24,675 bases of DNA from Nitrosomonas europaea (GCF_900167395.1 NZ_FUWK01000040.1:1-24675), one strand, 5' to 3'; counted from the stretch's first letter, positions 631 through 24,675 are shown. Translations and numbers: made by a program. Notes: generated by a model from the sequence alone, not told the origin.

Positions 631-956
631 AAACGAGTGATTTAATTGGGTGTTTGGGCTGGGGGCAACCCGAAATAGAAAAACACACTATTGCGCAACT
701 ATTAGCGAAAGAATTGCCCGAACCTGAAAGTGGACGGGTACCTATTTATATTTGTCCTGAGTGTGGTGATCTTGGGTGTGGCGCTGTAACTGCAAGAATA
801 GATGAAGAAGCAGACAGTTATATATGGTCAAATTTTGCATTCGAAAACAATTACGAAGGTACTATTGAACTATATAGTGAAGTTGGCCCATTTTCCTTTA
901 ACAAAGTTGCATATAGCAAAATCTTGAAAAAGAGGAGAACAGAAATTGCAGCATGA
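618..956 (+). pseudogene. 5'-truncated cassette ORF, hypothetical protein with CPECGDLGCG motif
   Basis: The frame is open from 618 right at the IS boundary with no ATG; the ORF track starts at a TTG at 654. The stop TGA (954-956) lies inside the first box of the following attC-like site. Confidence 0.5.
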
Positions 957-1028
957 CATGGCGCTAAACCTCGCTCCCTTCGGTCGATGGACGGCACTAA
1001 AGCACCGCCGGTTAGCTCTACGTTAGAA
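951..1028 (+). other. attC-like recombination site 1 (78 bp)
   Basis: GCATGAC (951-957, contains the upstream TGA stop) ... GCGCTAAACC pairs with GGTTAGC, leaving one extra A on the 5' arm ... GTTAGAA (1022-1028) sits 6 nt before ATG 1035. Both ends are homologous to the site at 3400-3483 (GCGCTAAACCTCGCTC vs GCGCTCAACACCGCTC; CCGCCGGTTAGCTCTACGTTAG vs CCGCCGTTAACTAATCGTTAAG). Confidence 0.6.
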
Positions 1029-1034
1029 GGCATT

Positions 1035-1517
1035 ATGAATACAGCACCCGAGTTGATCATTGCACGCAAGGCCATTGCCAAAATAGCTATTCGCTTTCCT
1101 TCTCTCACAATGATAGAAGAACCCACCGTACCAGTCGAACTAAGTATTCGTTTACCCGTGCAACCCGGACTAAATTACGAAGTTTGGCTTGCACTTCAAA
1201 ACAACGATGAACTTCATTTCTCAGTCGGAAATTTCTGGCTGGAGTGGTTTCCGTGTACAGAATCATCGCGCGTAAAGGAATATATTTCAGCTGTCACTGG
1301 CTTTTTATCCAGCCAATATCGTGTCTTGGAGCACTATCGTGGCAAACACTGCGTGAAAGCAGAGCTTCAAGCCCCAAGTGGCGGTGACTGGAAGACCGTT
1401 GGCACGTGGAGCAATCTTCTCAGTTTCCTGCCGCTACGCAGCTCTCTACGCGAGGTAAGCAATACCCAACCTATCATTCCACCGGACCTGCCGCAGCAAG
1501 CCGCACCCGATCGGTAA
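1035..1517 (+). CDS. hypothetical protein (cassette ORF)
   Basis: In-frame ATG at 1035 (MNTAPELIIARK...) within ORF 987-1517, starting 6 nt after the GTTAGAA core. No recognisable motif. Confidence 0.55.
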   Translation: MNTAPELIIARKAIAKIAIRFPSLTMIEEPTVPVELSIRLPVQPGLNYEVWLALQNNDELHFSVGNFWLEWFPCTESSRVKEYISAVTGFLSSQYRVLEHYRGKHCVKAELQAPSGGDWKTVGTWSNLLSFLPLRSSLREVSNTQPIIPPDLPQQAAPDR

Positions 1518-1532
1518 ATTCAGACATTAGTG
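1464..1532 (+). other. attC-like site 2 (69 bp), core G mutated
   Basis: ACCCAAC (1464-1470, perfect RYYYAAC) ... ATTCCACCGG pairs with CGGTAAAT, with an extra base on the 5' arm ... ATTAGTG (1526-1532), where the usual G is an A. The 3' arm CACCCGATCGGTAAATTCAGACATTAG aligns with the 3' arm of site 1. ATG 1540 follows after 7 nt. Confidence 0.45.
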
Positions 1533-1539
1533 CTCCCAA

Positions 1540-2064
1540 ATGGACTTCGATACATTCCGTCCGATTCTCAGTGGCCTGGTTGGCGGCTTGGTGGTTTATT
1601 TGCTTACTTATTCTGGCCGCAAGCCTGCAGCAACTGAAGGAGGAAGAAGGCTGTTGATTTATGGCCTCGGGATTAGAATCTTTACAGCCATTTTGATACC
1701 AAGCTCTCTATTCATTGCTTATGCCGCAGCTCATGCTCATCCAGACCAAGCAATTCTTGCGGTATGCATCGCCGCTGCATTCTTCTCTTATCAGGTATTT
1801 TTTGTCTCTCTGGCTTACGACAACGACAACATTTACTACCGAAGCCCAATTGGAGGAAACCATGTCATACCATGGCCGGATGTAGTCGAAGTTGGTTATT
1901 CGTGGCTTATGCAGAGCTACTATCTCCGGACGAAGCAAGTCCGGCGTATCTGGTGCTCAAATATGCTGCGTGGCTACAATGAGCTGGAGGAATTCATTCC
2001 GAAAAAAGCGGACAAGCTGTTTCATCCAGAGCTGAAGAGCTATAGCGAAGCTCATATAAATTGA
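1540..2064 (+). CDS. hypothetical integral membrane protein (cassette ORF); C-terminal tail altered by IS630 insertion
   Basis: There are several hydrophobic stretches (LSGLVGGLVVYLLTY, IRIFTAILIPSSLFIAYAAA, AILAVCIAAAFFSYQVFFV). Removing the IS and one TA copy restores ...CCA GAG CTG AAG AGC TAA, so the last 7 codons (YSEAHIN) are IS-derived. Confidence 0.65.
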   Translation: MDFDTFRPILSGLVGGLVVYLLTYSGRKPAATEGGRRLLIYGLGIRIFTAILIPSSLFIAYAAAHAHPDQAILAVCIAAAFFSYQVFFVSLAYDNDNIYYRSPIGGNHVIPWPDVVEVGYSWLMQSYYLRTKQVRRIWCSNMLRGYNELEEFIPKKADKLFHPELKSYSEAHIN

Positions 2065-2916
2065 TTATAATTTATAGATGACTTATCCCATTTCATTTCG
2101 CCGCAAAGTTTTATCTGTTCGAGAGAAGGAAGGACTCACCATAGCGCAAACGGCGGCTCGTTTTTGTGTGGGGATTGCCAGCGTAACACGCTGGATAAAA
2201 AATCCCGTTCCTAAAGAGAGCCGTAACAAACCGGCAACGAAGATCGACATGGCTGCGCTGGCCCATGATGTACGGGAATTTCCAGACGCCTATCAGGCCG
2301 AACGAGCTCGTCGACTGGGTGTAAGCGAAAAAGGTATCGGTCACGCACTGCGGCGTATGCACATCAGCTATAAAAAAAACACTGCAGCACCCCAAAGCGG
2401 ACGAAGACAAACGGCACACCTTCCAGGAGACGATTAAGGCGTATCAAGCTCAAAACCGCGTTATCGTCTATATTGACGAAAGTGGTTTTGCTCACGATAT
2501 GCCACGAACACATGGGTATGCACCCATTGGTAAACGGTGTCACGGCAAGTGTAATTGGCACGCGAGAGGCCGTATCAATGTCATCGGTGCATTGATAGGC
2601 AAATGTCTTCTGACGGTGGGATTATTCAAAAATAATATCGATGCAGATACTTTTTTAGGCTGGACGATACACGATCTGTTGCCAAAACTCCCACCTGCAT
2701 CGATTGTGGTCATGGATAACGCAACTTTCCGTAAAAGACAGGATATTCAAAATGTAATCACACGAGGCGGGCACACGCTTGAATATCTGCCAGCGTATTC
2801 ACCTGACCTTAATCCCATTGAGCACAAATGGGCACAAACCAAAGCAGTCAGAAAACAACAAAACCAAACCGTTGAGCAACTCTTTAAGATCGAATCATTT
2901 TATGTGACGTAGGCTA
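2043..2916 (+). mobile_element. IS630-family insertion sequence (874 bp) flanked by a TA duplication
   Basis: Terminal inverted repeats TAGCGAAGCTCATATAAATTGATT (2043-) and the reverse complement of 2916 backwards, TAGCCTACGTCACATAAAATGATT, match at about 24/33 positions counting the TA. TA is at 2041-2042 and 2917-2918, and the transposase lies inside. Confidence 0.8.
2078..2912 (+). CDS. IS630-family transposase, two frames joined at an A8 run
   Basis: ORF 2078-2437 is the HTH part; ORF 2499-2912 holds the DDE part (VYIDESGF...VVMDNATFRK...LPAYSPDLNPIEHKW). The second frame is already open from the A8 run at 2372-2379 (KKKTLQHPKADEDKRHTFQETIKAYQAQNRVIVYIDESGF). A +1/-2 shift, transcriptional slippage, or a 1-nt mutation is needed to join them. 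Confidence 0.8.
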
Positions 2917-2976
2917 TAACATCTCAGTCAACCCAAACACGCGAAAGTGCGCTGGTGACTTCAACCGTTATGCAAC
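2917..2976 (+). other. attC-like site 3, 3' portion (5' end AGCTA at 2038-2042 separated by the IS630 element)
   Basis: The reconstructed 60-bp site is AGCTAAC ATCTC AGTCAACC ... GGTGACT TCAACC GTTATGC. AGTCAACC pairs with GGTGACT, leaving one extra A on the 5' arm. GTTATGC (2970-2976) lies 12 nt before ATG 2989. Confidence 0.6.
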
Positions 2977-2988
2977 AGGAATCAGCCA

Positions 2989-3405
2989 ATGTTCAAACCA
3001 GTAGTACAAGAAGAAGTCACCGGATGCGGAATCGCATCGGTTGCCAATATTCTGGGTAAAACGTATTCAGAGATGAAGACCATAGCCAACGCCATGGGCA
3101 TCCATGCCTCGGATCAATCGCTGTGGTCGGATACCCAATACGTCCGACGTATGCTGTCTGGTGCTGGTGTTGAAACTTCCGAAGATGAAGTTCCGTTCGA
3201 ATCCTGGGATGCATTACCCGATCTGGCGTTGTTATCCATCAAGCATCATCAGGAAGAAGGCAAAGCTTTCTGGCACTGGGTTGTGTTCAAGCGTATGGAT
3301 GGTCAATCGTTCGTGCTGGATTCAGCCAGCTACCTGCCTTCCAATATCCGCCAGGATTTCGACGCTATGCAGCCTAAATGGTTTATCGAGGTCAAAAATG
3401 CGTAA
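2989..3405 (+). CDS. peptidase C39-like (papain-fold cysteine peptidase) domain protein
   Basis: N-terminal VTGCGIASVANIL (candidate catalytic Cys) and downstream FWHWVVF (candidate His), in a 138-aa protein. This is the same layout as bacteriocin-processing C39 domains. Assigned by eye only. Confidence 0.55.
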   Translation: MFKPVVQEEVTGCGIASVANILGKTYSEMKTIANAMGIHASDQSLWSDTQYVRRMLSGAGVETSEDEVPFESWDALPDLALLSIKHHQEEGKAFWHWVVFKRMDGQSFVLDSASYLPSNIRQDFDAMQPKWFIEVKNA

Positions 3406-3483
3406 CAATGCGCTCAACACCGCTCTTTTCGTTCGCTGGACAGCAAAAATACGCCTTTATCCGCCGTTAACTAATCGTTAAGC
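3400..3483 (+). other. attC-like site 4 (84 bp)
   Basis: GCGTAAC (3400-3406, contains the TAA stop of the peptidase gene) and GTTAAGC (3477-3483) are complementary at 6/7 positions. The arms GCTCAAC / GTTAAC are imperfect, with a central GCTG-GA-CAGC stem. ATG 3493 follows after 9 nt. Confidence 0.7.
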
Positions 3484-3492
3484 GCCGCAACG

Positions 3493-3996
3493 ATGCATTG
3501 CCGTAGTTTTCCTCCGATTGCAAGCCCAGGCTCATGGGTATTGATTCTTGGCACGATGCCCGGGAAAGTTTCACTTCGTGAGCAGCAGTATTATGCTCAC
3601 CCGCAAAACCTCTTCTGGAGAATCACTGCGGAGATTCTCGGTTTCGATGCCACAAGCGCATATCCTCTACGCGTATCTTCGCTAAAGGATCATGGCGTTG
3701 CGCTCTGGGATGTGCTGCAGTCATGTACGCGCGAAAGCAGTCTGGATGCTGATATCGTAGCGCATACGATCGTGCCAAACGATTTCGGTCGCTTTTTCAC
3801 GGCCTGTCCTGACATCCGACGGGTGTGTTTTAACGGTGCGAAGGCAGCAGCACTGTATGCCCGACATGTCAAACCGTTCTTACAAGACGCTCCCACAGTC
3901 GAGTATGTGCAGCTTCCCTCCACAAGTCCGGCGAATGCTGCTATTCCGCGAGCCGATAAGCTCCGCGCGTGGAGTGTCATTAAGCATAACGCCTAA
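3493..3996 (+). CDS. DNA-deoxyinosine (hypoxanthine) glycosylase, UDG superfamily family-6-like
   Basis: LILGTMPGKVSLREQQYYAHPQNLFWRI near the N-terminus and ~165 aa in size match my recollection of this family's signature (GxMPG..SL...QYYAHP.N.FW). Confidence 0.7.
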   Translation: MHCRSFPPIASPGSWVLILGTMPGKVSLREQQYYAHPQNLFWRITAEILGFDATSAYPLRVSSLKDHGVALWDVLQSCTRESSLDADIVAHTIVPNDFGRFFTACPDIRRVCFNGAKAAALYARHVKPFLQDAPTVEYVQLPSTSPANAAIPRADKLRAWSVIKHNA

Positions 3997-4040
3997 TCCG
4001 CGACTGGAGTCGGCGTGCTCCAGCGAATTTCAGCAGGACA
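3991..4040 (+). other. possible decayed attC or simple hairpin
   Basis: GCCTAAT (3991-3997) contains the TAA stop but has AAT instead of AAC. It is followed by a CGACTGGAG-N8-CTCCAGCG stem (4001-4025). No GTT core exists anywhere between 3996 and 4095. Confidence 0.25.
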
Positions 4041-4094
4041 CTTCACCATAAAGCAGCGCCTTTTCAACTTTTTACGATAAACCGGAGAAAAGAT

Positions 4095-4412
4095 ATGCGC
4101 CTCTTGATCGTTTTTTTACTGTTGTTGCCACTGCCTTCGCTGGCATTGCCACAGTGCGGATCAGAAGCCATTTTGCAGGCCCAAAAGCTCCTTTCCTTTC
4201 ATGTCGATGGTGATGACCGTGCACACGTCGATCCGAAAGCAATTGCTCTGCCATCTATCCGCAACCCGGCCAACAGGAAACAGAAGTTCCTGGTGCTTGA
4301 AGTTGACGGTACAGTTTACAAAAGTAAATACCGTATGCGGCTGATCTACTACCCGCTCGGTAGCGAATGCGTGCTCATGGGCCAGGAGATCCTGGAGCTC
4401 GCATCCCTGTAA
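4095..4412 (+). CDS. small secreted protein, hypothetical
   Basis: Signal-peptide-like N-terminus MRLLIVFLLLLPLPSLALPQ; GGAG sits 8 nt upstream of the ATG. Confidence 0.6.
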   Translation: MRLLIVFLLLLPLPSLALPQCGSEAILQAQKLLSFHVDGDDRAHVDPKAIALPSIRNPANRKQKFLVLEVDGTVYKSKYRMRLIYYPLGSECVLMGQEILELASL

Positions 4413-4422
4413 TGAAGCTGCG

Positions 4423-4482
4423 GCCTGACAATTCGTCCAGGCTGATGCCGCCTCGCAAAGTGACTTAATTCGAGTGTTATCT
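4423..4482 (+). other. attC-like site 6 (60 bp), probably decayed
   Basis: GCCTGAC AATTC GTCCAGGC ... GACTTAATTC GAGT GTTATCT. From memory it aligns without gaps at roughly 70% identity to the classic 60-bp aadA1 attC; this is unverified. The internal L-box complementarity is poor. Confidence 0.5.
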
Positions 4483-4508
4483 GGTATCTGGTTACCGCAC
4501 ACACAGTC

Positions 4509-4552
4509 TTGCATACTCCAAATAAGATGCTAATATAAGCGCTTTATTTGGA
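4509..4552 (+). promoter_or_regulatory. sigma-70-type promoter with flanking inverted repeat (putative antitoxin operator) for stbDE copy 1
   Basis: TTGCAT (4509-4514), 16 nt, TAATAT (4531-4536). TCCAAATAA (4517-4525) and TTATTTGGA (4544-4552) form a 9-bp inverted repeat bracketing the -10. Confidence 0.5.
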
Positions 4553-4568
4553 CCTCATTGGAGTATTT

Positions 4569-4820
4569 ATGCACCAAATACTGGCTTCATTTAGCGCAAG
4601 CATCTCTGAATTAAAGAAAAATCCAACAGCTTTGTTAAGAAAAGCCGAAGGGGAAACTATCGCTATTCTCAACCATAACCTGCCAACCGCTTACCTTGTT
4701 CCAGCCGAGGTATACGAGTTGTTGATGGAGAAATTGGAAGATTATGAATTAGGCGAAATTGTTAAGGCCAGGCAAGCGGAAAAACATTTGGCAATTGAAG
4801 TATCGCTTGATGACTTATAA
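4569..4820 (+). CDS. stbD: type II antitoxin, Phd/YefM-StbD family
   Basis: MHQILASFSASISELKKNPTALL...AILNHNLPTAYLVPAEVYE; GGAG lies 6 nt upstream of ATG 4569; it overlaps the toxin start by 11 nt. Confidence 0.85.
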   Translation: MHQILASFSASISELKKNPTALLRKAEGETIAILNHNLPTAYLVPAEVYELLMEKLEDYELGEIVKARQAEKHLAIEVSLDDL

Positions 4821-5100
4821 ATTAAAATTTTTGCCAAGTGCAAAAAAAGAGTGGGATAAACTGGACAGCAGCATCAAAACCCAATTTAAAAACAAATTAA
4901 AAAAATGCCTGGAAAATCCTCATATTCAGCCTAATAAACTACGTGGTTTTGATAACGCTTATAAAATCAAACTCCGCTCTGCAGGTTATCGGCTTGTTTA
5001 TGAAATCAATAATCAGGAAGTCGTTGTTTTCGTTATCGCTGTAGGCAAAAGGGAAAATAATAAGATTTACGATAAAGCAATCAACAGAACCAAAACTTAA
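4810..5100 (+). CDS. stbE: type II toxin, RelE/StbE (ParE/RelE superfamily)
   Basis: MTYKLKFLPSAKKEWDKLD...YKIKLRSAGYRLVYEINNQEVVVFVIAVGKRENNKIY. ATG 4810 is in the frame of ORF 4759-5100. Confidence 0.85.
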   Translation: MTYKLKFLPSAKKEWDKLDSSIKTQFKNKLKKCLENPHIQPNKLRGFDNAYKIKLRSAGYRLVYEINNQEVVVFVIAVGKRENNKIYDKAINRTKT

Positions 5101-16787: not shown

Positions 16788-17019
16788 ATGCCATATTCCA
16801 CACTATTTTAAGAGTGACAGCAAGCAGCCGTCATATCAGAGCTGCGCTGTATCAGCCAAAGGGGAAACCTGTACCAGAATTTTCTGAGATCTCGAATCAC
16901 GTGAGTTACTCGAAACCAGTGCCGTAAAGATTCAGAACAATCCTGCCGTATCCATACCAGCATCATGCTGTAACCGACAAAGGCTAATCTGTCGTAAGGC
17001 AGGGGCGCAAAGTTTCCGG

Positions 17020-17038
17020 TCCTGATCCATGATCAGGA
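17020..17038. promoter_or_regulatory. perfect 8-bp inverted repeat in the apaG/protease intergenic region
   Basis: TCCTGATC cat GATCAGGA, about 95 nt upstream of the protease ATG. Function unknown. Confidence 0.25.
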
Positions 17039-17132
17039 AAGCGGGACTGCCGAAGTTCGCATCCGATTTTCCATTCGGGCATGCGTGCTGATGAGTCGGC
17101 TTTCTATAACCCATCTTCTCAAGGAGCCGTGC

Positions 17133-19262
17133 ATGGCAAATGCAAAACCAGTTTGCTCACTCTTTCACTCTACTTTTCATGATGGTATTGCCAGTGTTTT
17201 TCACCGTTCTTTCAGCTTTCCACTTCTCCTGATTCTGCTGATCGCCTTTTCCGGCAGCGGCTACGCCAATTCGAGCAAAGAAACCCGGGCAGCTGCCAGA
17301 TCGGAATCTGCTGGTAAAACTGTTTCATCCCGCTGGGCGAAAGGCCGCTTGCTGGTCATTCCCCGTGCCGGTTTGACTGCGATGGAATTCGATAAAGCCA
17401 CCAAACCATATGGCGTGAAATCCAGACGCAGGCTCAACGGACTGAATGCTCACGTCTACGAACTGCCCGATGGCGTGGATGAAGTCAAAGTATTGGACAA
17501 ACTCAAGAAAGACCGGCGCTTCAAGGCGGTAGAGCTGGACAGGCTGGTTGAACCTGCTCAAGTCGTCACTGACCCCGCTTTTGGCAACAGTTGGGCACTG
17601 CCTAAAATTCAGGCGCCTGCCGCCTGGGATATTGCGACCGGTGACGGTATCACCATCGCGATTCTGGATACCGGTGTGGATGGCACTCACCCTGATCTGG
17701 CCGCCAACATGCTTCCCGGCTGGAATGCGTATGACAATAATACCGATACCAGTGATATCTACGGCCACGGTACCAAAGTGGCCGGCACGGCAGCCGCAGT
17801 CGCCAATAACGGTGCCGGCAGTTCCGGATTGGCCTGGAATGCACGCATTCTGCCGGTGCGTATTTCCATGCCGGATGGCCGTGCATACTTGAGCGACATG
17901 GCCAAAGGTATCCGCTGGGCGGCAGACAACGGCGCCAGAATAGCCAATATCAGCTACGGCGGTGCAGAAAGCCTGACTGTCCAGTCAGCTGCCAATTACA
18001 TGCGCAGCAAGGGTGGAGTGGTAGTCATGTCCGCAGGTAATTCCGGTGGATTGAACAATTTTCCCGCCAGTAACGCCATCATCGTTGCTTCAGCTACGGA
18101 CAGCAAAGATGCCCGTGCCAGCTGGTCCAGCTACGGGCCTTATGTCGATGTGGCAGCCCCCGGTGTGAGCATCTATACCACGATACGCGGTGGTGGTTAC
18201 GGCTATGTCTCCGGCACATCCTTCTCCAGCCCGATCGTAGCGGCAGCTGCTGCATTGCTGTTTTCCATCAACCCGGATCTTGCTCCGACGGATATCGACC
18301 AGATGCTGACCGCTACTGCGCAAGACCTTGGCAACGCCGGATATGACCAATATTACGGCCATGGCCGTATCAATGCCGCCAGTGCGGTCAATGCTGCCCA
18401 CGCACGCATCAGCGTAGACAGAACGGCACCGCTGATCAGCATTGCTTCCCCCACTGGTGGAACAGTCTCTGGCAGCGTTCCGGTAGATGTCAATTATTCC
18501 GACAACAAGGGCGTGGTGCGGGTGGATCTGTACGTCAACGGCCGCAAAACAATCGAAGATACTCAACCACCTTTCGCCTTCGCCTGGGATACCACGACAC
18601 TGGCTAACGGCAGCTATACGCTGGTCGCATATGCCTTCGATGCCGCCGGCAACCAGGGCACTTCTTCCACTGTGAATGTCACGGTAAAAAATACTGTGGC
18701 CGATACCACCCCGCCGACGATCAGCATTACCTCCCCTGCCGGTGGAGCCGTCGTCTTAGGCAGTGTGCCAGTCAATGTCAATTCTTCCGACAACATTGGA
18801 GTGGTACGCACGGAGCTACACGTCAATGGTAAAAAAGTGATGGAAGGTACCGGCTCCAGTTTTGTCTGGGATACCAAATCACTGGCAGATGGCAACTATA
18901 CGCTGGTAGCGTATGCCTTTGATGCTGCCGGCAACCAAGGTGCTTCCTCTCCGGTAGCTGTCAGTGTAAAAAATACCGGCACTACTACAAATACCGAACC
19001 ACTGCCGCAAATCAACTCATTCAACCTCAGGGATGGGCAGAACGTCAGCCGTAACCAGAATATCAGGGTAACTGCCGACAGGAACACCCGCAAAATCAAC
19101 CTGAAAATCAATGGCGGCATTATCGCCGCTGCTAACGGTAACTCGTTGAGTTATCGCTGGAATACCAGTGCGATCCCCAAAAATAGTAATATCACCGTCA
19201 CGGCAGAAGCATTCAATGCCAAAGGGGATGCCACCAGCAGAACAGTCACGGTAAGAAATTAG
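17133..19262 (+). CDS. secreted subtilisin-like serine protease (peptidase S8) with C-terminal tandem Ig-like domains
   Basis: AAGGAG lies 6 nt upstream of ATG 17133, and there is a hydrophobic signal region FPLLLILLIAFSGSGYA. Catalytic triad motifs are AILDTGVD, HGTKVAGTAAA and SGTSFSSPIVAAAAA. Three ~95-aa repeats follow. Confidence 0.85.
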   Translation: MANAKPVCSLFHSTFHDGIASVFHRSFSFPLLLILLIAFSGSGYANSSKETRAAARSESAGKTVSSRWAKGRLLVIPRAGLTAMEFDKATKPYGVKSRRRLNGLNAHVYELPDGVDEVKVLDKLKKDRRFKAVELDRLVEPAQVVTDPAFGNSWALPKIQAPAAWDIATGDGITIAILDTGVDGTHPDLAANMLPGWNAYDNNTDTSDIYGHGTKVAGTAAAVANNGAGSSGLAWNARILPVRISMPDGRAYLSDMAKGIRWAADNGARIANISYGGAESLTVQSAANYMRSKGGVVVMSAGNSGGLNNFPASNAIIVASATDSKDARASWSSYGPYVDVAAPGVSIYTTIRGGGYGYVSGTSFSSPIVAAAAALLFSINPDLAPTDIDQMLTATAQDLGNAGYDQYYGHGRINAASAVNAAHARISVDRTAPLISIASPTGGTVSGSVPVDVNYSDNKGVVRVDLYVNGRKTIEDTQPPFAFAWDTTTLANGSYTLVAYAFDAAGNQGTSSTVNVTVKNTVADTTPPTISITSPAGGAVVLGSVPVNVNSSDNIGVVRTELHVNGKKVMEGTGSSFVWDTKSLADGNYTLVAYAFDAAGNQGASSPVAVSVKNTGTTTNTEPLPQINSFNLRDGQNVSRNQNIRVTADRNTRKINLKINGGIIAAANGNSLSYRWNTSAIPKNSNITVTAEAFNAKGDATSRTVTVRN
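18414..18983 (+). repeat. tandem coding repeat, two units of ~285/282 bp (plus a third divergent unit to ~19259)
   Basis: ...SPTGGTVSGSVPVDVNYSDNKGVVRVDLYVNG...GSYTLVAYAFDAAGNQG... vs ...SPAGGAVVLGSVPVNVNSSDNIGVVRTELHVNG...GNYTLVAYAFDAAGNQG.... The same repeat produces the two minus-strand shadow ORFs ending in PWLPAASKAYATSV. Confidence 0.85.
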
Positions 19263-19316: not shown

Positions 19317-19393
19317 TCGGGAAAATTGACAGTGTTATATTGAAGCCAGGCTTATAGCGTATAAAGATGTTTATAAACAACAATATAATATAT

Positions 19394-19409
19394 TGGCACG
19401 TTTTGTGCT
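19394..19409 (+). promoter_or_regulatory. sigma-54 (-24/-12) promoter candidate
   Basis: TGGCACGTTTTGTGCT against the consensus TGGCACG-N4-TTGCW. The GG-N10-GC spacing is correct with a single mismatch. It lies 50 nt upstream of ATG 19459 and is preceded by an AT-rich tract. Confidence 0.55.
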
Positions 19410-19458
19410 TCCTATCAATAGGTATAGTTATTATTATAATAAGCCAGCGAAGGAAAAT

Positions 19459-20046
19459 ATGAAAAAACAAGTAATCAAGGGAATGTTGGCGGCATCTGCT
19501 GCAGCTTTGATGTTGGGCGTATCTGCGGCTCACGCCAATGTGATTGATGAGTTAGTGGGCTCTGCCAAATTGGGTAACTCTGGTGATGGTACAGAGCTTG
19601 CATTTATCAGAAGTATAACAGGCGATAATACCCTGACACTGGATTTCAAAATCAACGATAATGATTCGAGCTTCAATGTAATGTCCAATGGACTTGATTC
19701 CTGGTTCATTGATGTTGCTCCAGACACACCGGGATATTTTATGTTGAAATTGGGCGTCCCCGGGAACTCAACCTTACATAGTCATTATGTTTTCAAAAAC
19801 ATAGGTGAGTTGGATAAACTTGTATGGTCAAATGATCAGGTAAATTACCTGACAGGAGGCAATTGTGGTCTTAATGGAAGCCCCAATAGCTGTAATATCG
19901 GGCGTTTGAGCCACTATGTTGGTACACAGGGTATTGGTGGTGAAGATCCTGAAGTACCGGGAGAGATTCCTGAACCGGCCAGCATGTTGCTGTTTGGGGC
20001 CGGGTTACTGGGACTGGGGTTGAGCCGCCGCCGTAAACTGGTCTAA
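19459..20046 (+). CDS. PEP-CTERM sorting-domain secreted protein
   Basis: Signal peptide MKKQVIKGMLAASAAALMLGVSAAHA; C-terminus IPEPASMLLFGAGLLGLGLSRRRK (PEP motif, TM helix, basic tail); AAGGAA RBS. Confidence 0.85.
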   Translation: MKKQVIKGMLAASAAALMLGVSAAHANVIDELVGSAKLGNSGDGTELAFIRSITGDNTLTLDFKINDNDSSFNVMSNGLDSWFIDVAPDTPGYFMLKLGVPGNSTLHSHYVFKNIGELDKLVWSNDQVNYLTGGNCGLNGSPNSCNIGRLSHYVGTQGIGGEDPEVPGEIPEPASMLLFGAGLLGLGLSRRRKLV

Positions 20047-20091
20047 TCAGAAACAGATAACAAAATAACCATAAGTGAAACAAAGACTCAG

Positions 20092-20118
20092 GCGCCGGGA
20101 AACCGGCGCTTTTCTTTT
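20092..20118 (+). terminator. rho-independent terminator
   Basis: GCGCCGG gaaa CCGGCGC followed by TTTTCTTTT. Confidence 0.8.
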
Positions 20119-20335
20119 ATACTTTTAGTTTTATTCAGCCTTTCATCCCGTTTTATAAAGACATCCGCATACCCATCTATTATTGCGGGAAGGCTCCAGA
20201 CCGACACGGCAACCCGGTATTTTTACCAATGCTTCATGCCCGCAGCGTTCGTAAAGACATCCAACCCGTCATCGCGAGACATATTGGCGATCCAGAATGG
20301 ATTACAGGCCAAATCGAGGTCAAAGAGTCAGTCAG

Positions 20336-20504
20336 AATCAACGCTTGTTACACTCGGTACCGGCACCAGCGCTTTCCGAACCTTCAGCTCAACTTCAGCA
20401 CAGATCACAAAACGCTGCTTCCAGAGAACCCCGAGCCGAGCCGGTTCAACAAACGGGCCATACCGTGGTTCACTTCGCGAACGACATAACCTTAATTGTT
20501 ATGT
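20336..20504 (-). other. long attC-like element / repeat A1 downstream of parE
   Basis: On the minus strand, ACATAAC (contains the parE TAA stop) AATTA AGG... ends in ...GTGTAACAAGC GTTGATT (rc of 20336-20342). Parts are repeated at 23339-23424. At 169 bp it is long for an attC, and the structure has not been checked. Confidence 0.4.
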
Positions 20505-20795
20505 TTCAGTTGGTAAAACAAGCGGTCGCTCACTGCGCCAAACACGAATTACTTTTATCGCGCCTTTTTCCCTCAGATAAACCACCCTGAAAGGAGCAAA
20601 GATAATTTCCCGGATATGGGGGAGTTGGAATTCAGGCACTATTCTGCCCATATCCGGATGGTCGGCCAAAATCTGAATATGCTCGATTATTTCTTGGGCA
20701 AATTTGAAACCAACATCAGGAACACCTTCTGCAGTGTAATAACTGATCATGGTTTCCAGGTCATTAAAAGCAGAATTGGAAATGCTGACTTTCAT
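20499..20795 (-). CDS. parE: type II toxin, ParE/RelE family
   Basis: MKVSISNSAFNDLETMISYY...PFRVVYLREKGAIKVIRVWRSER. Overlaps the antitoxin by 4 nt. Confidence 0.85.
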   Translation of the reverse strand: MKVSISNSAFNDLETMISYYTAEGVPDVGFKFAQEIIEHIQILADHPDMGRIVPEFQLPHIREIIFAPFRVVYLREKGAIKVIRVWRSERPLVLPTET

Positions 20796-21061
20796 TCGAT
20801 GCCTAAACGCTTTTTCGCCTCAGACAATGACATGGTATTGCCCTCTTTGATGTCCATAAGACCTTGGGCAACCGCTTTGACAAAAGCCAGCTCTTCCTGG
20901 CTCTTTTCATATTCATCGAGGTCTTGCACTACAGCCACACCTCGGCCACGACTGGTTAAAAGAACAGGTCTGCGAGTTTCTTTAACTCGGCTTACAACGC
21001 GACCAGGATTGACTTTTAAATCTGCAAGGGGAATTACATCTTCAGAGAATTTGATTGTCAT
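20792..21061 (-). CDS. type II antitoxin, Phd/YefM family
   Basis: MTIKFSEDVIPLADLKVNPGRVVSRVKETRRPVLLTSRGRGVAVVQDLDEYE. GGAGG lies 5 nt upstream of ATG 21061; the track start at 21073 is a TTG. Confidence 0.85.
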   Translation of the reverse strand: MTIKFSEDVIPLADLKVNPGRVVSRVKETRRPVLLTSRGRGVAVVQDLDEYEKSQEELAFVKAVAQGLMDIKEGNTMSLSEAKKRLGIE

Positions 21062-21088
21062 GACTGCCTCCAAAATGATTTAGACCAG

Positions 21089-21118
21089 TTTATAGCACCT
21101 ATTAACATAACTTGTAAA
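21089..21118 (-). promoter_or_regulatory. candidate sigma-70 promoter of phd-parE
   Basis: On the minus strand, TTTACA, 18 nt, TATAAA, about 25 nt upstream of the RBS. Confidence 0.4.
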
Positions 21119-21180
21119 AAGACATAATTGAGGGTATGCAGCCCGCGTCATCGGTTCGGAATGATGTGGTTCAATAGATC

Positions 21181-21378
21181 TGTACACTGCAGTCAAGAGA
21201 TAATATTTTTAACTGGAGGTCAGGAGATGATCACAAGGAAGCAGTATTCAAAAGAGTTCAAACTGGACGCTGTCAGTCTGGCACTGGATCAGGGAGTATC
21301 GGGAGGATAGCAACGGACAGGCATTCAGGGGTAACGGCAAGCTGACCCCGGAGCAGGAGGAAATCAGAAATCAAAGGA
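21181..21378 (+). pseudogene. IS3-family relic: left end plus internally deleted, 3'-truncated orfA
   Basis: TGTACACTGCAG... is an IS150/IS3-like terminus. ATG 21227 gives MITRKQYSKEFKLDAVSLALDQG, then a frame break. A second frame reads AFRGNGKLTPEQEEIRNQ, and the similarity ends near 21375. No orfB is present. Confidence 0.65.
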
Positions 21379-21387
21379 TCAGGTCCA

Positions 21388-21437
21388 GAATCAATAACAC
21401 TTGTTATCTTATTTTCTTCATTCTCGGCCTGGCCCCT
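21388..21437. repeat. repeat C1 (GAATCAATAACACTTGTTATCT) fused to repeat B3
   Basis: The 17-bp GAATCAATAACACTTGT is identical at 22161-22177. CTTATTTTCTTCATTCTCGGCCTGGCCC matches B1 (23013-) at about 24/28. It contains an AAC/GTT heptamer (21403-21409) 35 nt downstream of the mazF stop. Confidence 0.55.
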
Positions 21438-21444
21438 ATTATTT

Positions 21445-21783
21445 CTAGCTGCCGATAATTTCATTTAAACCTTCAACAATCTGCGCAAGCTCTTCAGGAG
21501 CAATCGCCCCGATCTTCTTACCAATGCGTTCAGTGGAAAGTGTACGGATTTGACTTATCTTTACCCAGGAGCGTTTAGGCAAGCTGGATTTCAGAATTTC
21601 GTATGTCAACGGAAATCCGGCGCGCTGTTCCTGACTGGTGAGCGCCATAGCAATGACTGTTCCGGACCGCTCATTGAATATATCCTGACTCAGGACAAGA
21701 ATCGGCCGCTCACCTGATTGCTCTCGACCAACAGTTGGATTGAGATTAGCCCACCGGATCTCGCCCCTCAATATTTTGGCCAC
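21445..21783 (-). CDS. mazF: type II toxin, MazF/PemK-family endoribonuclease
   Basis: [37 protein letters not shown]...[14 protein letters not shown]. Confidence 0.85.
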
Positions 21784-22010
21784 GCAACCAGCTCCTCAGA
21801 CAAACCTTCGTCTGCCATTGCCTTTTCAAAGGCAGGATCAAGTTTTGCGCATTCCTCGGCCAGACGGCTACGATCCATGCGCTCCAGCTTTTCCTGCACA
21901 GCCTCCTGGATCGCACGGCTGCGGTTAGCAAATACACGCTGCCTCACCAGCGCATCCACTCTGGCAAGCACCTCTTCTTCGATTGTGATAGCTACTTTGG
22001 TCTGACTCAT
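21768..22010 (-). CDS. type II antitoxin, ribbon-helix-helix (CopG-like)
   Basis: [38 protein letters not shown]. Overlaps mazF by 16 nt. Confidence 0.8.
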
Positions 22011-22028
22011 AACGACACCTTACTCTAG

Positions 22029-22068
22029 TATGACAATTGATCATACCTTCTAAATTTTGTCAGTACAA
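22029..22068 (-). promoter_or_regulatory. sigma-70 promoter and near-palindromic operator of the RHH-mazF operon
   Basis: On the minus strand, TTGTAC (rc of 22063-22068), 17 nt, TATGAT (rc of 22040-22045). TATGA-N7-TCATA (22029-22045) overlaps the -10. Confidence 0.5.
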
Positions 22069-22182
22069 CCTGAAGTAGCTAACGGTTTAGCCCTCTATTA
22101 CAACCTTGCGAAAAACAGCGGTGATTAGCGCTCAGGTAGAGATAAATTCCACGAAACCCGGAATCAATAACACTTGTCAACT
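22063..22182. other. attC-like element between the vapBC and mazEF modules (orientation ambiguous)
   Basis: AAC/GTT heptamers occur at both ends: GTACAAC / AGCTAAC (22063-22083) and GTCAACT (22176-22182). AGCTAAC and the rc of GTCAACT match at 5/7. Internal stem ATTCC-N9-GGAAT. Read on the minus strand, it starts 34 nt after the vapC stop and ends 66 nt before the RHH ATG. Confidence 0.4.
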
Positions 22183-22216
22183 TAAAAACAGCTTGATCAG
22201 GTATAAAAAAGGGTAT

Positions 22217-22645
22217 TTATGCTTCGGTTTCCCAGGGATTAATTACATTCAAACCTGCAATGTCCTCAAAATCAACGGTATTACGCGTAGATAAGAACAT
22301 TCGATATGCCAGCGCAATCGCAGCGATCTGAGCATCCTCCACGCTGATGGGCCGACCCATTCGGGTCCGTGTAGAAACGATACGCCCATAGTAACTGGCC
22401 GCGATTTCATCAAATGGCAGGCAGCGCCCGGCAAAATCCTCATCGAACATTGTCCGGGCGGCCTGGCTTAAACTTTTCTGTCGCTTACTCTCCGGCATCA
22501 GTGCCAGGCCTAATTCGATTTCGGCACGGCTAACAGCGTTTGTCCAGATCTCATTGGGCGCCTGCCTGTCCAGCCAAACAACCACTTGAGTAGCGGGTTG
22601 CAGACGCATAAATTCAGAAAGCACATTGGTATCGAGCAAAATCAT
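22217..22645 (-). CDS. vapC: type II toxin VapC (PIN-domain ribonuclease)
   Basis: MILLDTNVLSEFMR... with the conserved acidic residues of PIN domains. Overlaps the antitoxin by 4 nt. Confidence 0.85.
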   Translation of the reverse strand: MILLDTNVLSEFMRLQPATQVVVWLDRQAPNEIWTNAVSRAEIELGLALMPESKRQKSLSQAARTMFDEDFAGRCLPFDEIAASYYGRIVSTRTRMGRPISVEDAQIAAIALAYRMFLSTRNTVDFEDIAGLNVINPWETEA

Positions 22646-22896
22646 ATTGGCTCATCCCAACTCGGCGGAGTGCGCGGCACCTGACGTGCGGGCAAAGCAA
22701 ACTCTTTGCTTGTTGACTCAGCAAAGCGACTCAGCAAATGCTGGCCAAATGGGAATTGACTACTACCAGCACGAGAAAGCTCCTGCCGAAGGATTCGCCG
22801 CACCTCCTCTTCCATTGACACCCCATGCTGCGCCGCACGAATACGCAGCAACCGTTTGGTTACATCGTCCACATTGCGAATGGTCAACGTTGCCAT
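22642..22896 (-). CDS. vapB: type II antitoxin VapB, FitA/Arc-type RHH
   Basis: MATLTIRNVDDVTKRLLRIRAAQHGVSMEEEVRRILRQ. Confidence 0.8.
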   Translation of the reverse strand: MATLTIRNVDDVTKRLLRIRAAQHGVSMEEEVRRILRQELSRAGSSQFPFGQHLLSRFAESTSKEFALPARQVPRTPPSWDEPI

Positions 22897-22913
22897 AAGA
22901 AATCTCCCAGATT

Positions 22914-22957
22914 GACATCAATGCTATCATTATCGGCATTGATGTCTTAGCTGTCAA
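22914..22957 (-). promoter_or_regulatory. sigma-70 promoter of vapBC with a perfect 11-bp inverted-repeat operator
   Basis: On the minus strand, TTGACA (rc of 22952-22957), 17 nt, GATAAT (rc of 22929-22934). GACATCAATGC (22914-22924) and GCATTGATGTC (22936-22946) flank the -10. Confidence 0.6.
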
Positions 22958-23012
22958 ACAAGAAAAATGACGGGGAAAACGGAGACAAACCATGGTTATC
23001 ATTAACGCTAGG

Positions 23013-23048
23013 CTTATTTTCTTGATTCGCAACCTGACCCTCATCACG
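23013..23048. repeat. repeat B1
   Basis: CTTATTTTCTTGATTCGCAACCTGACCCTCATCACG. Near-identical copy at 24173-24207 and a diverged copy at 21408-21437. A GTT heptamer (GTTATCA, 22995-23001) starts 18 nt before it. Confidence 0.6.
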
Positions 23049-23338
23049 CTTTGGTGATCAGAACGGCAACGGCCGGATCAGCTTCCATTACCGCGACAAC
23101 CGTCCGCCACTACCAGGCCGACGTTCCTATGCCCACACTGCGGCGAACCGATGCAGATGATTTGACAGCGTATTTCACCAACAGCAATCAGACAACAAAT
23201 GACGAAACTGGCAACAGAGATGACTGTGCACACCTGTCCACTGACAAAAGACGCGCTGACCAGCGCCACGGCCACATTCGGCCGAGAAACGGGAGAAACA
23301 TGGCGTAACCGCAGAAATTACCCAGTTATTCAGATCTG

Positions 23339-23424
23339 AGTACCGACACCAGTGCTTCCCCGCGAAAACACCGGACCTTCAGCTCAACTTCAGGGCGACC
23401 ACGACATAACCTTAATTGTTATGG
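23339..23424. repeat. repeat A2 (shortened copy of 20357-20504)
   Basis: GTACCGACACCAGTGCTTCCC..., CCTTCAGCTCAACTTCAG and ACGACATAACCTTAATTGTTATG are shared with A1. About 75 bp present in A1 between the last two blocks is missing here. Confidence 0.6.
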
Positions 23425-23489
23425 CTTTATGAGACCATTTTAAAGTACCATAATTAGTCTTTACTATTCCTGTTCTTTGGATCAAAGCC

Positions 23490-23738
23490 ATGCCAAATAA
23501 AATACTTACTGAAATTGCAGCCAGCATATCCGAGCTCAAAGCCAACCCGATGAAGGTAGTAGCCAGCGGTAAAGGCATGCCAATCGCCGTGCTAAACCAC
23601 AACGAACCCGCCTTTTATTGCGTACCCGCCGCCGCCTATGAAGCAATGATGGAATTGCTCGATGATATCGAGCTGCTAAAAATCGTGAAAGAACGAATGG
23701 ACGAACCCAGCGTCAAGGTCTCGCTCGATGACCTATAA
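23490..23738 (+). CDS. stbD: type II antitoxin, Phd/YefM-StbD family (copy 2)
   Basis: MPNKILTEIAASISELKANPMKVV...AVLNHNEPAFYCVPAAAYE. Paralog of 4569-4820. Confidence 0.85.
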   Translation: MPNKILTEIAASISELKANPMKVVASGKGMPIAVLNHNEPAFYCVPAAAYEAMMELLDDIELLKIVKERMDEPSVKVSLDDL

Positions 23739-24024
23739 ACTGGAATTCAAAAAATCTGCACTCAAAGAATGGGAAAAACTCGGCCATACCATCAAAGAGC
23801 AATTCAAGAAAAAACTCAAAGAACGACTGGAAAATCCTCATGTACATTCAGCAGCTTTGCCTGGGGCCAAAAACATATACAAAATCAAATTGCGCCAACC
23901 TGGATACCGCCTCGTATACTCCGTTGAAGATCAAACTATTACGGTAACTGTCATCGCTATCGGCAAACGCGACCGCAATGAAATTTACGATATAGCTTTA
24001 TCACGATTGCATGACAAATCCTAA
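23728..24024 (+). CDS. stbE: type II toxin, RelE/StbE (copy 2)
   Basis: MTYKLEFKKSALKEWEKL...YKIKLRQPGYRLVYSVEDQTITVTVIAIGKRDRNEIY. Has the same 11-nt overlap with its antitoxin as copy 1. Confidence 0.85.
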   Translation: MTYKLEFKKSALKEWEKLGHTIKEQFKKKLKERLENPHVHSAALPGAKNIYKIKLRQPGYRLVYSVEDQTITVTVIAIGKRDRNEIYDIALSRLHDKS

Positions 24025-24161
24025 GCTATAACGCTGGAATCAAGCCATACAGCGAAGTGAGGTGTGATGCAATAGCGGTTATTTATCAACTATCAACCGC
24101 TGTTCATTGCGAAATCCTGCAAGGATGAAGCAATCCAGTGCCTTCGCTACTCTTGTTGCCG
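24025..24161. other. possible long attC-like element after stbE copy 2
   Basis: GCTATAAC directly follows the TAA stop, and GTTGCCG lies at 24155-24161. Internal complementary blocks are AGCGAAG / CTTCGCT and GCAAT..CGGTT / AACCG..ATTGC. The arms are very asymmetric. Confidence 0.3.
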
Positions 24162-24172
24162 ATCTGTTTAGA

Positions 24173-24207
24173 CTATTTTCTTGATTCGCGACCTGACCCT
24201 GATCACG
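24173..24207. repeat. repeat B2
   Basis: CTATTTTCTTGATTCGCGACCTGACCCTGATCACG, a copy of B1. GTTGCCG starts 18 nt before it, the same spacing as at B1. Confidence 0.6.
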
Positions 24208-24221
24208 TTGAAAATATTGGC

Positions 24222-24259
24222 ATGATAATTAATCATACTTTTCAAATTTCACCGGTCAA
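24222..24259 (-). promoter_or_regulatory. orphan promoter-operator copy homologous to the RHH-mazF promoter
   Basis: On the minus strand, TTGACC (rc of 24254-24259), 16 nt, TATGAT (rc of 24232-24237), overlapped by ATGAT-N5-ATCAT (24222-24236). The flanking CAACCTGAAGCAGCCAACG matches CAACCTGAAGTAGCTAACG at 22066-22084. No TA genes follow. Confidence 0.35.
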
Positions 24260-24265
24260 CCTGAA

Positions 24266-24341
24266 GCAGCCAACGCTGTGCTCTGCGGAAATTTGGGAGC
24301 GGCAGCGAGTAAATTTTCCGTAGCAGCGCCTTGCTAGCTGC
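24266..24341. repeat. 76-nt extended imperfect hairpin, attC-like
   Basis: GCAGC CAA CGCTG .. CT .. CGGAAATTT (16-nt loop) AAATTTTCCG . AG CAGCG .. TTG ... GCTGC. On the minus strand it ends in GTTGGCT, with extra bases on the 5' arm. Confidence 0.45.
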
Positions 24342-24349
24342 TGACACTT

Positions 24350-24675
24350 TCCTATCTGTCCGGTCCCTAGGTCGAATCGACATTTAAAGCCATAAAGTTG
24401 CTGCAGCCAGATGTATGAAGGCGGAGAAGTAAATAGCTTTACGGTCATATCTGGTTGAGAGTCTGCGCCAATGCTTGAGTTTGTTGAATGTGCGCTCAAT
24501 GATATTTCTACATTTATAGATTTCGCGATCATACGTTCTTCGTATTTTGCGGTTTGATCGCGGTGGAATGACAGGCACGGCCTTCATGGAGGCAATGGCG
24601 TCGAGAATATTATCGCTGTCGTAGCCTTTATCCGCCAGAACATGCGAGGGCCTGAACCCGCTGATCAGATCAAGA
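24350..24675 (-). mobile_element. second IS5-family (IS427-group-like) element, partial; continues past the window end; inner end approximate
   Basis: The transposase C-terminus is on the minus strand, with a CTAG at 24367-24370 near the probable terminus. The protein differs from the left-hand IS in the shared region (LADKGYDSDNILDAI vs LADRGYDSNAIVEQA). Confidence 0.7.
24384..24675 (-). CDS. IS5-family transposase, C-terminal part (N-terminus outside the window)
   Basis: The reverse complement reads LDLISGFRPSHVLADKGYDSDNILDAIASMKAVPVIPPRSNRKIRRTYDREIYKCRNIIERTFNKLKHWRRLSTRYDRKAIYFSAFIHLAAATLWL. Confidence 0.8.
   Translation of the reverse strand, partial: LDLISGFRPSHVLADKGYDSDNILDAIASMKAVPVIPPRSNRKIRRTYDREIYKCRNIIERTFNKLKHWRRLSTRYDRKAIYFSAFIHLAAATLWL

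Follow-up and report, generated by a model that had tools for sequence, protein, structure and literature searches.

The Nitrosomonas europaea toxin-antitoxin (TA) complement is one of the largest known, and the locus considered here raises the question of how a single TA island of this organism has been built. The stretch of DNA analysed (the window, 24,675 nucleotides) matches N. europaea ATCC 19718, AL954747.1, at about 1.69-1.72 Mb, and carries near its right end, from 20336 to 24341, four TA modules that an initial annotation interpreted as a second attC-bounded array, inverted with respect to a cassette array on the left of the window and partly decayed. TA clusters of the N. europaea genome have already been published and this locus is among the statistically clustered groups (PMC2701414, Table 5), while a passage of PMC2374986 cites 45 TA loci. 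The analysis reported here indicates that the island is probably the left end of a decaying integron-type cassette array without integrase, the junctions of which have been taken over by repeats and insertion sequences (IS).

The island is larger than the window suggests. A second assembly, overlapping the window over 12,459 bases with 0 mismatches, adds 7,970 bases on the right (the extended sequence), and the N. europaea sequence examined amounts to 41.6 kb in all. The TA array covers 9.3 kb, from window 20.1 kb to extended 29.4 kb, and comprises at least seven intact and three remnant TA modules; its left neighbour is a PEP-CTERM gene, whose terminator marks the border at about 20.1 kb, and its right neighbour is fliC, whose upstream region is reached at about 29.4 kb. 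The window modules form its left third; Pfam supports all eight of their genes and thereby confirms the packing of four modules, three on the minus strand and stbDE on the plus strand, into 4 kb. The rest of the array consists of an IS, higBA, a ParE-like fragment, an orphan Phd, a second fitA-vapC pair, a 59-codon open reading frame (ORF) and an Unstab_antitox-ParE pair. Only stbDE lies on the plus strand, the remaining modules being oriented on the minus strand and reading away from fliC. The gene tables, which reach 9 kb beyond the window on the left and 8 kb on the right, list neither an integron integrase nor a tyrosine recombinase; an active IntI exists in N. europaea according to a statement in PMC3053210 that cites Leon and Roy 2003.

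Two attC covariance models were used, R1 built from fifteen attCs of class 1 integrons on plasmids and R2 built from 34 attCs, including chromosomal sites found by R1 in environmental arrays. R1 recovered the held-out ereA attC at 21.6 bits, found over 18 attCs in environmental cassette arrays reached via mazF homologs, each of them on the strand of the ORFs and the best at 54 bits, and separated the two strands of one genuine site by 53.3 bits on the correct strand vs 8.5 on the other; in control regions totalling about 55 kb, one spurious match appeared. In the left array the two models found 6-7 attCs, all on the plus strand, R2 giving seven of 13.2-21.7 bits. Applied to both strands of the island, as the initial annotation had suggested, the models returned one statistically supported attC, located at 24268-24339 on the minus strand (Table 1), and none at the sites proposed behind vapC and mazF. 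On the minus strand this attC is canonical, AGCTAGC AAGGC GCT-G-CTACGGAAA ... TTTCCGCAGAGC ACAGC GTTGGCT, its spacer measuring 5 nt, the G at position 4 of L'' being bulged and the R' box reading GTTGGCT; the R'' box contains AGC instead of AAC. The plus strand, which is the predicted bottom strand, folds as a full hairpin. A homolog with an intact AGCTAAC occurs in contig L024, which comes from a different Nitrosomonas species. Since the site is found about 125 nt past the higA stop in strains free of the IS, it can be regarded as the attC of the higBA cassette. Other island matches were marginal (20484-20504, E about 1; 28553-28614, E 1.8 with R1 only; 24009-24070, E 9), and an Rfam scan of 20000-24675 gave nothing, even at E <= 1.

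The mazEF module is recognizable from its homologs as an integron cassette by descent. Homologs of mazF with 83-96% amino acid identity are distributed over many taxa, and several of them sit in sense orientation in genuine arrays with strong attC matches, in which the attC begins at the mazF stop (e.g., L027 4334-4397) and the mazE promoter is preceded by an R' box. The DNA of mazEF is 80-84% identical to these cassettes, and the homology extends over 22085-21446, from a GTTAGCT box to the mazF stop codon. As annotated initially, the distance from this box to the RHH start codon is exactly 66 nt, and the box is also the point at which homology sets in both to the remnant 24268-24275 and to the mazEF cassettes of L024, L027, L030 and L031. 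The remnant belongs to a second mazEF-type cassette, reduced to its 5' end, promoter and operator, which forms with 22047-22084 the direct repeat D8, holds a promoter-like site at 24259-24232, and starts right after the R' box of the attC 24268-24339 in the same way as mazEF itself. The bounds of the homology and the start of the remnant together indicate that the orientation of the array is minus and that GTTAGCT is a real cassette boundary. An upstream R' boundary is thus present for mazEF and its remnant, and a downstream attC for higBA, the downstream attC of mazEF having been replaced by the repeat described below; neither cassette feature was seen for vapBC, phd-parE or stbDE. Degenerate core-like boxes, namely GCTAGGC, GCTAGCT and GTTAATG, recur at the junctions.

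These boundaries bear directly on the possibility that the array is attC-bounded in the plus orientation, with the TA operons inverted in their cassettes and the heptamers behind them being R' boxes (GTTATGT, GTCAACT and GTTATCT). TA cassettes of Vibrio superintegrons are often inverted, and the homology between repeat copies stops sharply at the heptamers, as a crossover between G and TT would produce; the same breaks are, however, explained by a repeat made of two joined transposon ends. The paralog of the parE-type hairpin at 28553-28614 has an extra base on the 5' arm of the plus strand, on which R1 gave 11.2 bits, but this plus-strand match is no longer returned by R2. Such an arrangement is most improbable, and was rejected, because the only solid attC is minus and because in genuine arrays mazEF is sense, with R' upstream of the promoter and R'' at the mazF stop.

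The motifs behind vapC and mazF, which had been proposed as attC boundaries, proved to have another origin. Both are present where they had been placed, within 1 nt: behind vapC, 35 nt past the stop, the reverse complement of 22170-22181 reads AGTTGAC AAGTG, and behind mazF, 36 nt past the stop, that of 21397-21408 reads AGATAAC AAGTG. Neither is matched by R1 or R2 on either strand at E <= 10, so that the proposal of an attC behind each minus-strand module does not hold at two of the three sites, the third, behind parE, being only attC-like. An AAC-ending heptamer by itself is not beyond chance, since it is expected at 1 in 64 positions; the 18-nt motif RACAAGYGTTATTGATTC is found twice in the window vs 0.01 expected, which identifies it as a true repeat. 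No non-coding repeat is common to the island and the left array, the sole blastn match between the island and the rest of the window being the stbDE paralogy (23764-23841 vs 4846-4923), and the resemblance noted earlier to "site 7" of the left array comes down to the heptamer AGATAAC.

Read on the minus strand, the repeat consists of Y, GGGGTCAGGTCGCGAATCAAGAAAATAAG (core GGTCAGGTCGCGAATCAAGAA), followed by the heptamer TATAAC and by X, AAGCGTTATTGATTCTGG..., and it occurs in the extended sequence as three full and four partial copies. Elsewhere in Nitrosomonas (L011, L015), a Y1 (IS200/RAYT-like) transposase gene of family PF01797 is preceded by the Y core, about 20 nt 5' of its ATG, and Y takes the same place in 21 of its 46 occurrences in 39 metagenome contigs. 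X matches the 3' end of this gene, its final codons together with the stop (AAG AAC AAG GAT TCT TGA TTC TGG), and is itself an inverted Y-like repeat. With Y as the 5' flank and X as the 3' end of the gene, the 62-75-nt unit represents the two termini of the element with the gene missing, and can be identified by homology as a doublet of the REPIN/MITE-like kind treated in PMC3116915 and PMC3337134, where such doublets are mobilised by RAYT/IS200-like Y1 transposases. Doublets are represented by copies a, b and e, and also by copies in L024 and on the N. eutropha plasmid p1, where a short version of the repeat adjoins a HigA remnant, this being the only real plasmid match obtained with blastn, and a short one. 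Other Nitrosomonas loci hold 2-5 copies of the repeat per 8 kb, with solo Y also in non-TA contexts. The mazF motif lies within copy e, and an L'/R' partner is missing from the full paralogs of this site, 28474-28545 and 26218-26277; the vapC site (22077-22181) has three local hairpins without R/L pairing as its minimum-energy fold, its left half being an X repeat and its right end an R' scar. What was found at these two sites is therefore the REP/MITE family that the initial annotation had itself named as the outcome that would speak against attCs.

The Nitrosomonas repeat resembles REPINs in its two inverted repeats of about 23 nt separated by a short spacer, in its intergenic position downstream of genes, and in flanking a Y1-transposase gene in inverted orientation. 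It differs from them in its weak hairpin (z = -1 to -1.6; consensus -1 kcal/mol) with little covariation (compensatory change in 2 of 10 pairs), in a transposase gene that is multi-copy, or IS-like, in some contigs, and in being confined to the TA island within the N. europaea sequence examined. Multiple copies of the transposase gene were noticed in several Nitrosomonas contigs (L015 550-1445 and 2589-3380; L011 1605 and 3917; L046, L052, L053, L065, L067 and L072), each with a 23-nt Y repeat before it and an inverted Y-like repeat at its end. L011 has a PIN-toxin gene between a Y repeat and a truncated transposase copy, and L014 contains at 3440-3800 a 226-nt tandem duplication, made of the 3' end of a HAD-like gene and a repeat of about 105 nt ending in Y, near which several more Y copies stand beside a PEP-CTERM gene. 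Three other interpretations of the repeat were discarded. A Xer/dif-like core (ATAA-N6-TTAT), as in pdif-type modules, was a resemblance only and became unnecessary with the Y1-transposase homology, which also superseded a Tn3/Tn21-type 38-bp terminal repeat (22 of 38 positions matching); the idea of a low-copy, array-specific repeat came from a 6-locus genome scan whose pattern was too strict.

The third proposed site, behind parE, belongs to another family of hairpins (family 2). Its motif ACATAAC AATTA is the reverse complement of 20493-20504 and overlaps the parE stop codon, and 5 of the 7 bases of ACATAAC are parE codons plus stop, conserved in attC-free homologs. The hairpin is 58 nt long, ends in ACATAAC/GTTGAAC, and has a bulge-free L stem of 11 bp, in which four pairs are G-T on the minus strand (fold z = -1.5). 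The attC models align only its terminal boxes, 20484-20504, with 11.6-13.1 bits on the minus and 8.3-8.7 bits on the plus strand. A paralog is found after another ParE gene at 28553-28614; the arm lengths at 20447-20504 fit the minus strand, and the bulge of the paralog fits the plus strand. In L024 the family-2 body comes after a Y repeat, which suggests that the parE hairpin may belong to the Y repeat system. The parE site is retained as an attC-like candidate. A stretch at 20404-20479, with counterparts at extended 29320-29395 and at L024 1799-1876 and 2647-2722, is kept between species and copies and is readable as a peptide (HK(T/K)LLPENPEP... on the plus and ...ARLRVLWKQLFVIFPESG... on the minus strand). 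The ORF-like stretch 20229-20489 gave no Pfam match in the one frame scanned, and the conserved stretch may be a piece of a decayed gene joined to the parE-type hairpin.

The comparison between lineages informs on how the modules are exchanged. Contigs of N. europaea strains are 99-100% identical apart from IS, and no cassette gain or loss was seen among them; the IS5-family element is absent from the N. europaea-like contigs L007, L013 and L050, which points to a recent, strain-specific insertion. At the same fliC flank, L024 carries another TA set, all reading away from fliC (ParD/ParE-like, DUF4160/DUF2442, HigB-like/HI1420, MazEF and CcdAB), and shares several junction blocks with N. europaea in a different order. 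A close relative (L047, JGI Ga0116143_10030145) is devoid of the segment 23049-24173, and with it of stbDE: the Y copies c and d that flank this segment correspond to a single Y, copy c being joined directly to the sequence past d, and L047 diverges right past GTTAATG at window 22995, with different sequence beyond. It thus represents a structural variant of this locus occurring in the population. Recombination of direct Y repeats would explain at least this event more simply than IntI action. Together, the L047 variant and the absence of the IS show that module turnover is real, with breakpoints at junction elements.

The L047 variant also suits a rather different view, according to which the locus was never an integron array but a TA hot spot beside fliC, where modules would have been gained singly by illegitimate or homologous recombination, REPIN-like repeats and IS serving as recombination substrates and the attC and the R' box being passengers of imported cassettes (higBA and mazEF). 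Most junctions indeed hold Y1-transposase-derived repeats, not attCs. The phd-parE module with its promoter (21107-20499) has 81-83% DNA identity to solitary modules in L033 and L035, and the vapBC module (22958-22207) 85% identity to a solitary module in L040; elsewhere the homologs of both occur only as solitary modules, conserved from promoter to stop codon in attC-free surroundings. None of the parE and vapC homologs has a genomic context in an attC array, and these contexts are accordingly uninformative on the orientation of the two sites. The homologous array of L024 also gave zero attC matches, although the same contig holds the homolog of the island attC with intact R''. Against a hot spot stand the near-canonical attC in the expected orientation, the mazEF boundary placed exactly at an R' box and seen twice, the single direction of all modules but one, and the recurrence of the core-like boxes at the junctions; it is accordingly considered unlikely.

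The probable course of events is therefore that of a decaying cassette array. The array would have begun, at least in part, as a cluster of attC sites lacking an integrase (CALIN, a term that reportedly goes back to the IntegronFinder work of Cury et al. in 2016), i.e., as an integron-type array without an integrase of its own, of which one near-canonical attC, the R' box of mazEF and the degenerate boxes, with AGC or GAC for AAC and GCT for GTT, would be the surviving backbone. The module junctions have been colonised or replaced by the Y1-transposase-derived repeat, the IS5-family element and the IS3 relic being present as well, and the module content varies among Nitrosomonas lineages with breakpoints at the junction elements. 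Each TA operon presumably drives its expression from a promoter-operator of its own, under autoregulation, and acts as an addiction module, the modules jointly making the segment hard to delete. A near-consensus promoter (TTGACA-17-GATAAT, 22957-22929, minus strand) that overlaps a palindrome precedes vapBC, and the mazEF-type leader holds a similar one. Since the sites are degenerate, with mutated core triplets, movement of most modules by IntI supplied in trans would now be unlikely, and present reshuffling would more probably proceed through homologous recombination of direct Y repeats and IS activity. A more specific scenario, in which REPIN-like hairpin repeats preferentially insert into or replace the single-strand-folding attCs of a dying array and then serve as junctions for TA exchange between Nitrosomonas genomes, so that exchange passes from IntI/attC to an HUH transposase and repeat recombination, is very doubtful.

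Several observations weigh against the decaying array. With one significant attC, the island remains below the at least two needed by IntegronFinder-style CALIN calling, the next-best match having an E of about 1. The geometry of the parE-type sites is ambiguous, R1 weakly favouring the plus strand for the paralog 28553-28614, and the homologs of vapBC and phd-parE are solitary modules, not cassettes, so that a cassette origin is not demonstrated for these two. The 41.6 kb of N. europaea sequence examined showed no Y1-transposase gene. The folding energies of all candidate sites are no better than those of shuffles (z -1.6 to +1.3); as the same holds for the attCs of the left array, folding energy does not discriminate attCs. 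On balance, the initial interpretation is partly supported: a cassette-like TA array, opposite to the left array and partly decayed, is upheld by the minus-strand attC and the cassette descent of mazEF, while the vapC and mazF motifs, on which the interpretation had in part been built, are not attCs.

Table 1. Coordinates of the attC sites, cassette remnants, mobile elements, TA modules and repeats of the window.
Feature	Position	Strand	Remarks
Left-array attCs (R2)	1464-1532; 3400-3483; 4423-4482; 2914-2973; 951-1028; two just left of window	+	
Sole statistically supported island attC	24268-24339	minus only	R1 13.2 bits; R2 19.2 bits, E 0.0095; genome position about 1,714,836-1,714,907
R'-type box GTTAGCT, 5' boundary of mazEF cassette	22077-22083	minus	homology start point
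Second mazEF-type cassette remnant (5' end, promoter, operator only)	24208-24275	minus	85% identical to L024 3628-3760
IS3-family relic, 5' part of orfA	21128-21340	+	Pfam HTH_Tnp_1, E = 0.004
IS5-family element, 842 bp	24370-24675, on to extended 25211	minus	Pfam DDE_Tnp_1; splits higBA from its attC
phd-parE module	20499-21073	minus	ParE 20499-20795 (PF05016), Phd 20792-21073 (PF02604)
RHH-mazF module	21445-22010	minus	MazF 21445-21783 (PF02452), RHH 21768-22010 (PF01402)
fitA-like/vapC (PIN) module	22217-22896	minus	PIN/VapC 22217-22645 (PF01850), FitA-like 22642-22896 (PF22513)
phd/relE-parE (stbDE-like) module	23490-24024	+	Phd 23490-23738 (PF02604), ParE/RelE 23728-24024 (PF05016)
vapBC promoter and palindromic operator-like sequence	22917-22957	minus	promoter scan 11/12 matches; palindrome GACATCAATGC...GCATTGATGTC
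REPIN/MITE-like repeat copy e (Y-H1-X)	21369-21443	minus	contains mazF motif AGATAAC AAGTG TTATTGAT
Partial X copy f	22158-22184	minus	vapC motif AGTTGAC AAGTG TTATTGAT; 89% identical to 21385-21411; X-core match
Solo Y repeat copy d	23015-23048	minus	repeat family
Solo Y repeat copy c	24174-24207	minus	repeat family
Imperfect hairpin after parE, family 2	20447-20504		ACATAAC AATTA AGGTTATGTCGT ... ACGGTATGGCC CGTTT GTTGAAC
Internally deleted family-2 copy, upstream of stbD	23371-23423		direct repeats D14 (23 nt, 100%) and D16

The IS3 relic announced initially at the place where the attC of mazF should continue is recognizable from its HTH_Tnp_1 match, which is weak. The left array (650-5100, extending to about 950 nt left of the window; L001 8071-13496) is the clearer cluster of attCs without integrase. 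Two elements break it up, one IS5-like (95-568) and the other of the IS630 family (2078-2912), and an stbDE-like TA cassette at 4548-5100 forms its end. A sequence of about 75 nt located 5' of the 59-codon ORF (extended 28249-28326) is 75-79% identical to three copies in the genuine integron array of another organism (L030 2560-2638, 3631-3704 and 5114-5182), and could be a cassette-borne promoter or some other small repeat. Between the two arrays, a c-di-GMP-I-GGC riboswitch (16973-17055, plus strand; Rfam RF03167, 59.4 bits, just over the gathering score) stands directly 5' of a gene for a secreted S8 subtilisin-like protease with duplicated Big_7 domains (17085-19262), which is followed by the PEP-CTERM gene (19393-20046).

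With respect to known systems, the island resembles CALINs and decaying sedentary chromosomal integrons in its small, mostly co-oriented modules, the lack of a nearby integrase, at least one model-detectable attC, one cassette common to genuine arrays, and a module content that varies at a fixed locus. Unlike CALINs, it has a single significant attC with mutated core triplets and other repeats at most junctions, and every one of its modules is a TA system with its own promoter. A second point of comparison is the Vibrio cholerae superintegron, the TA cassettes of which were reportedly described by Pandey and Gerdes in 2005, Szekeres in 2007 and Iqbal in 2015. There, too, type II TA operons with their own promoters lie in a cassette array and are thought to stabilise it against deletion, and the ParE, RelE/HigB, Phd and MazF-like families are common to both. 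The Vibrio TA cassettes all lie between highly conserved VCR attCs and have a working IntIA beside them, whereas the island is almost purely made of TA modules, without adjacent integrase and with decayed attCs. Compared to the published surveys of N. europaea TA systems (PMC2701414, PMC2374986), the present description adds the sequences of the junctions, with an attC remnant and repeats derived from a Y1 transposase.

The combination is a new example rather than a new kind, TA islands, CALINs, superintegron TA cassettes and REPINs all being established, and the island is a fairly ordinary graveyard of decaying mobile DNA that leaves the current understanding of integrons and TA systems unchanged. 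Since REP/MITE families can mimic attCs, AAC-ending heptamers at stop codons and short intergenic repeats are insufficient for attC calling. For N. europaea, the result offers a concrete picture of how one TA island is built, and beyond it shows a possible end of a chromosomal cassette array, in which the integrase is gone, most attCs are eroded or overwritten by small mobile repeats, and self-stabilising TA modules are what is left.

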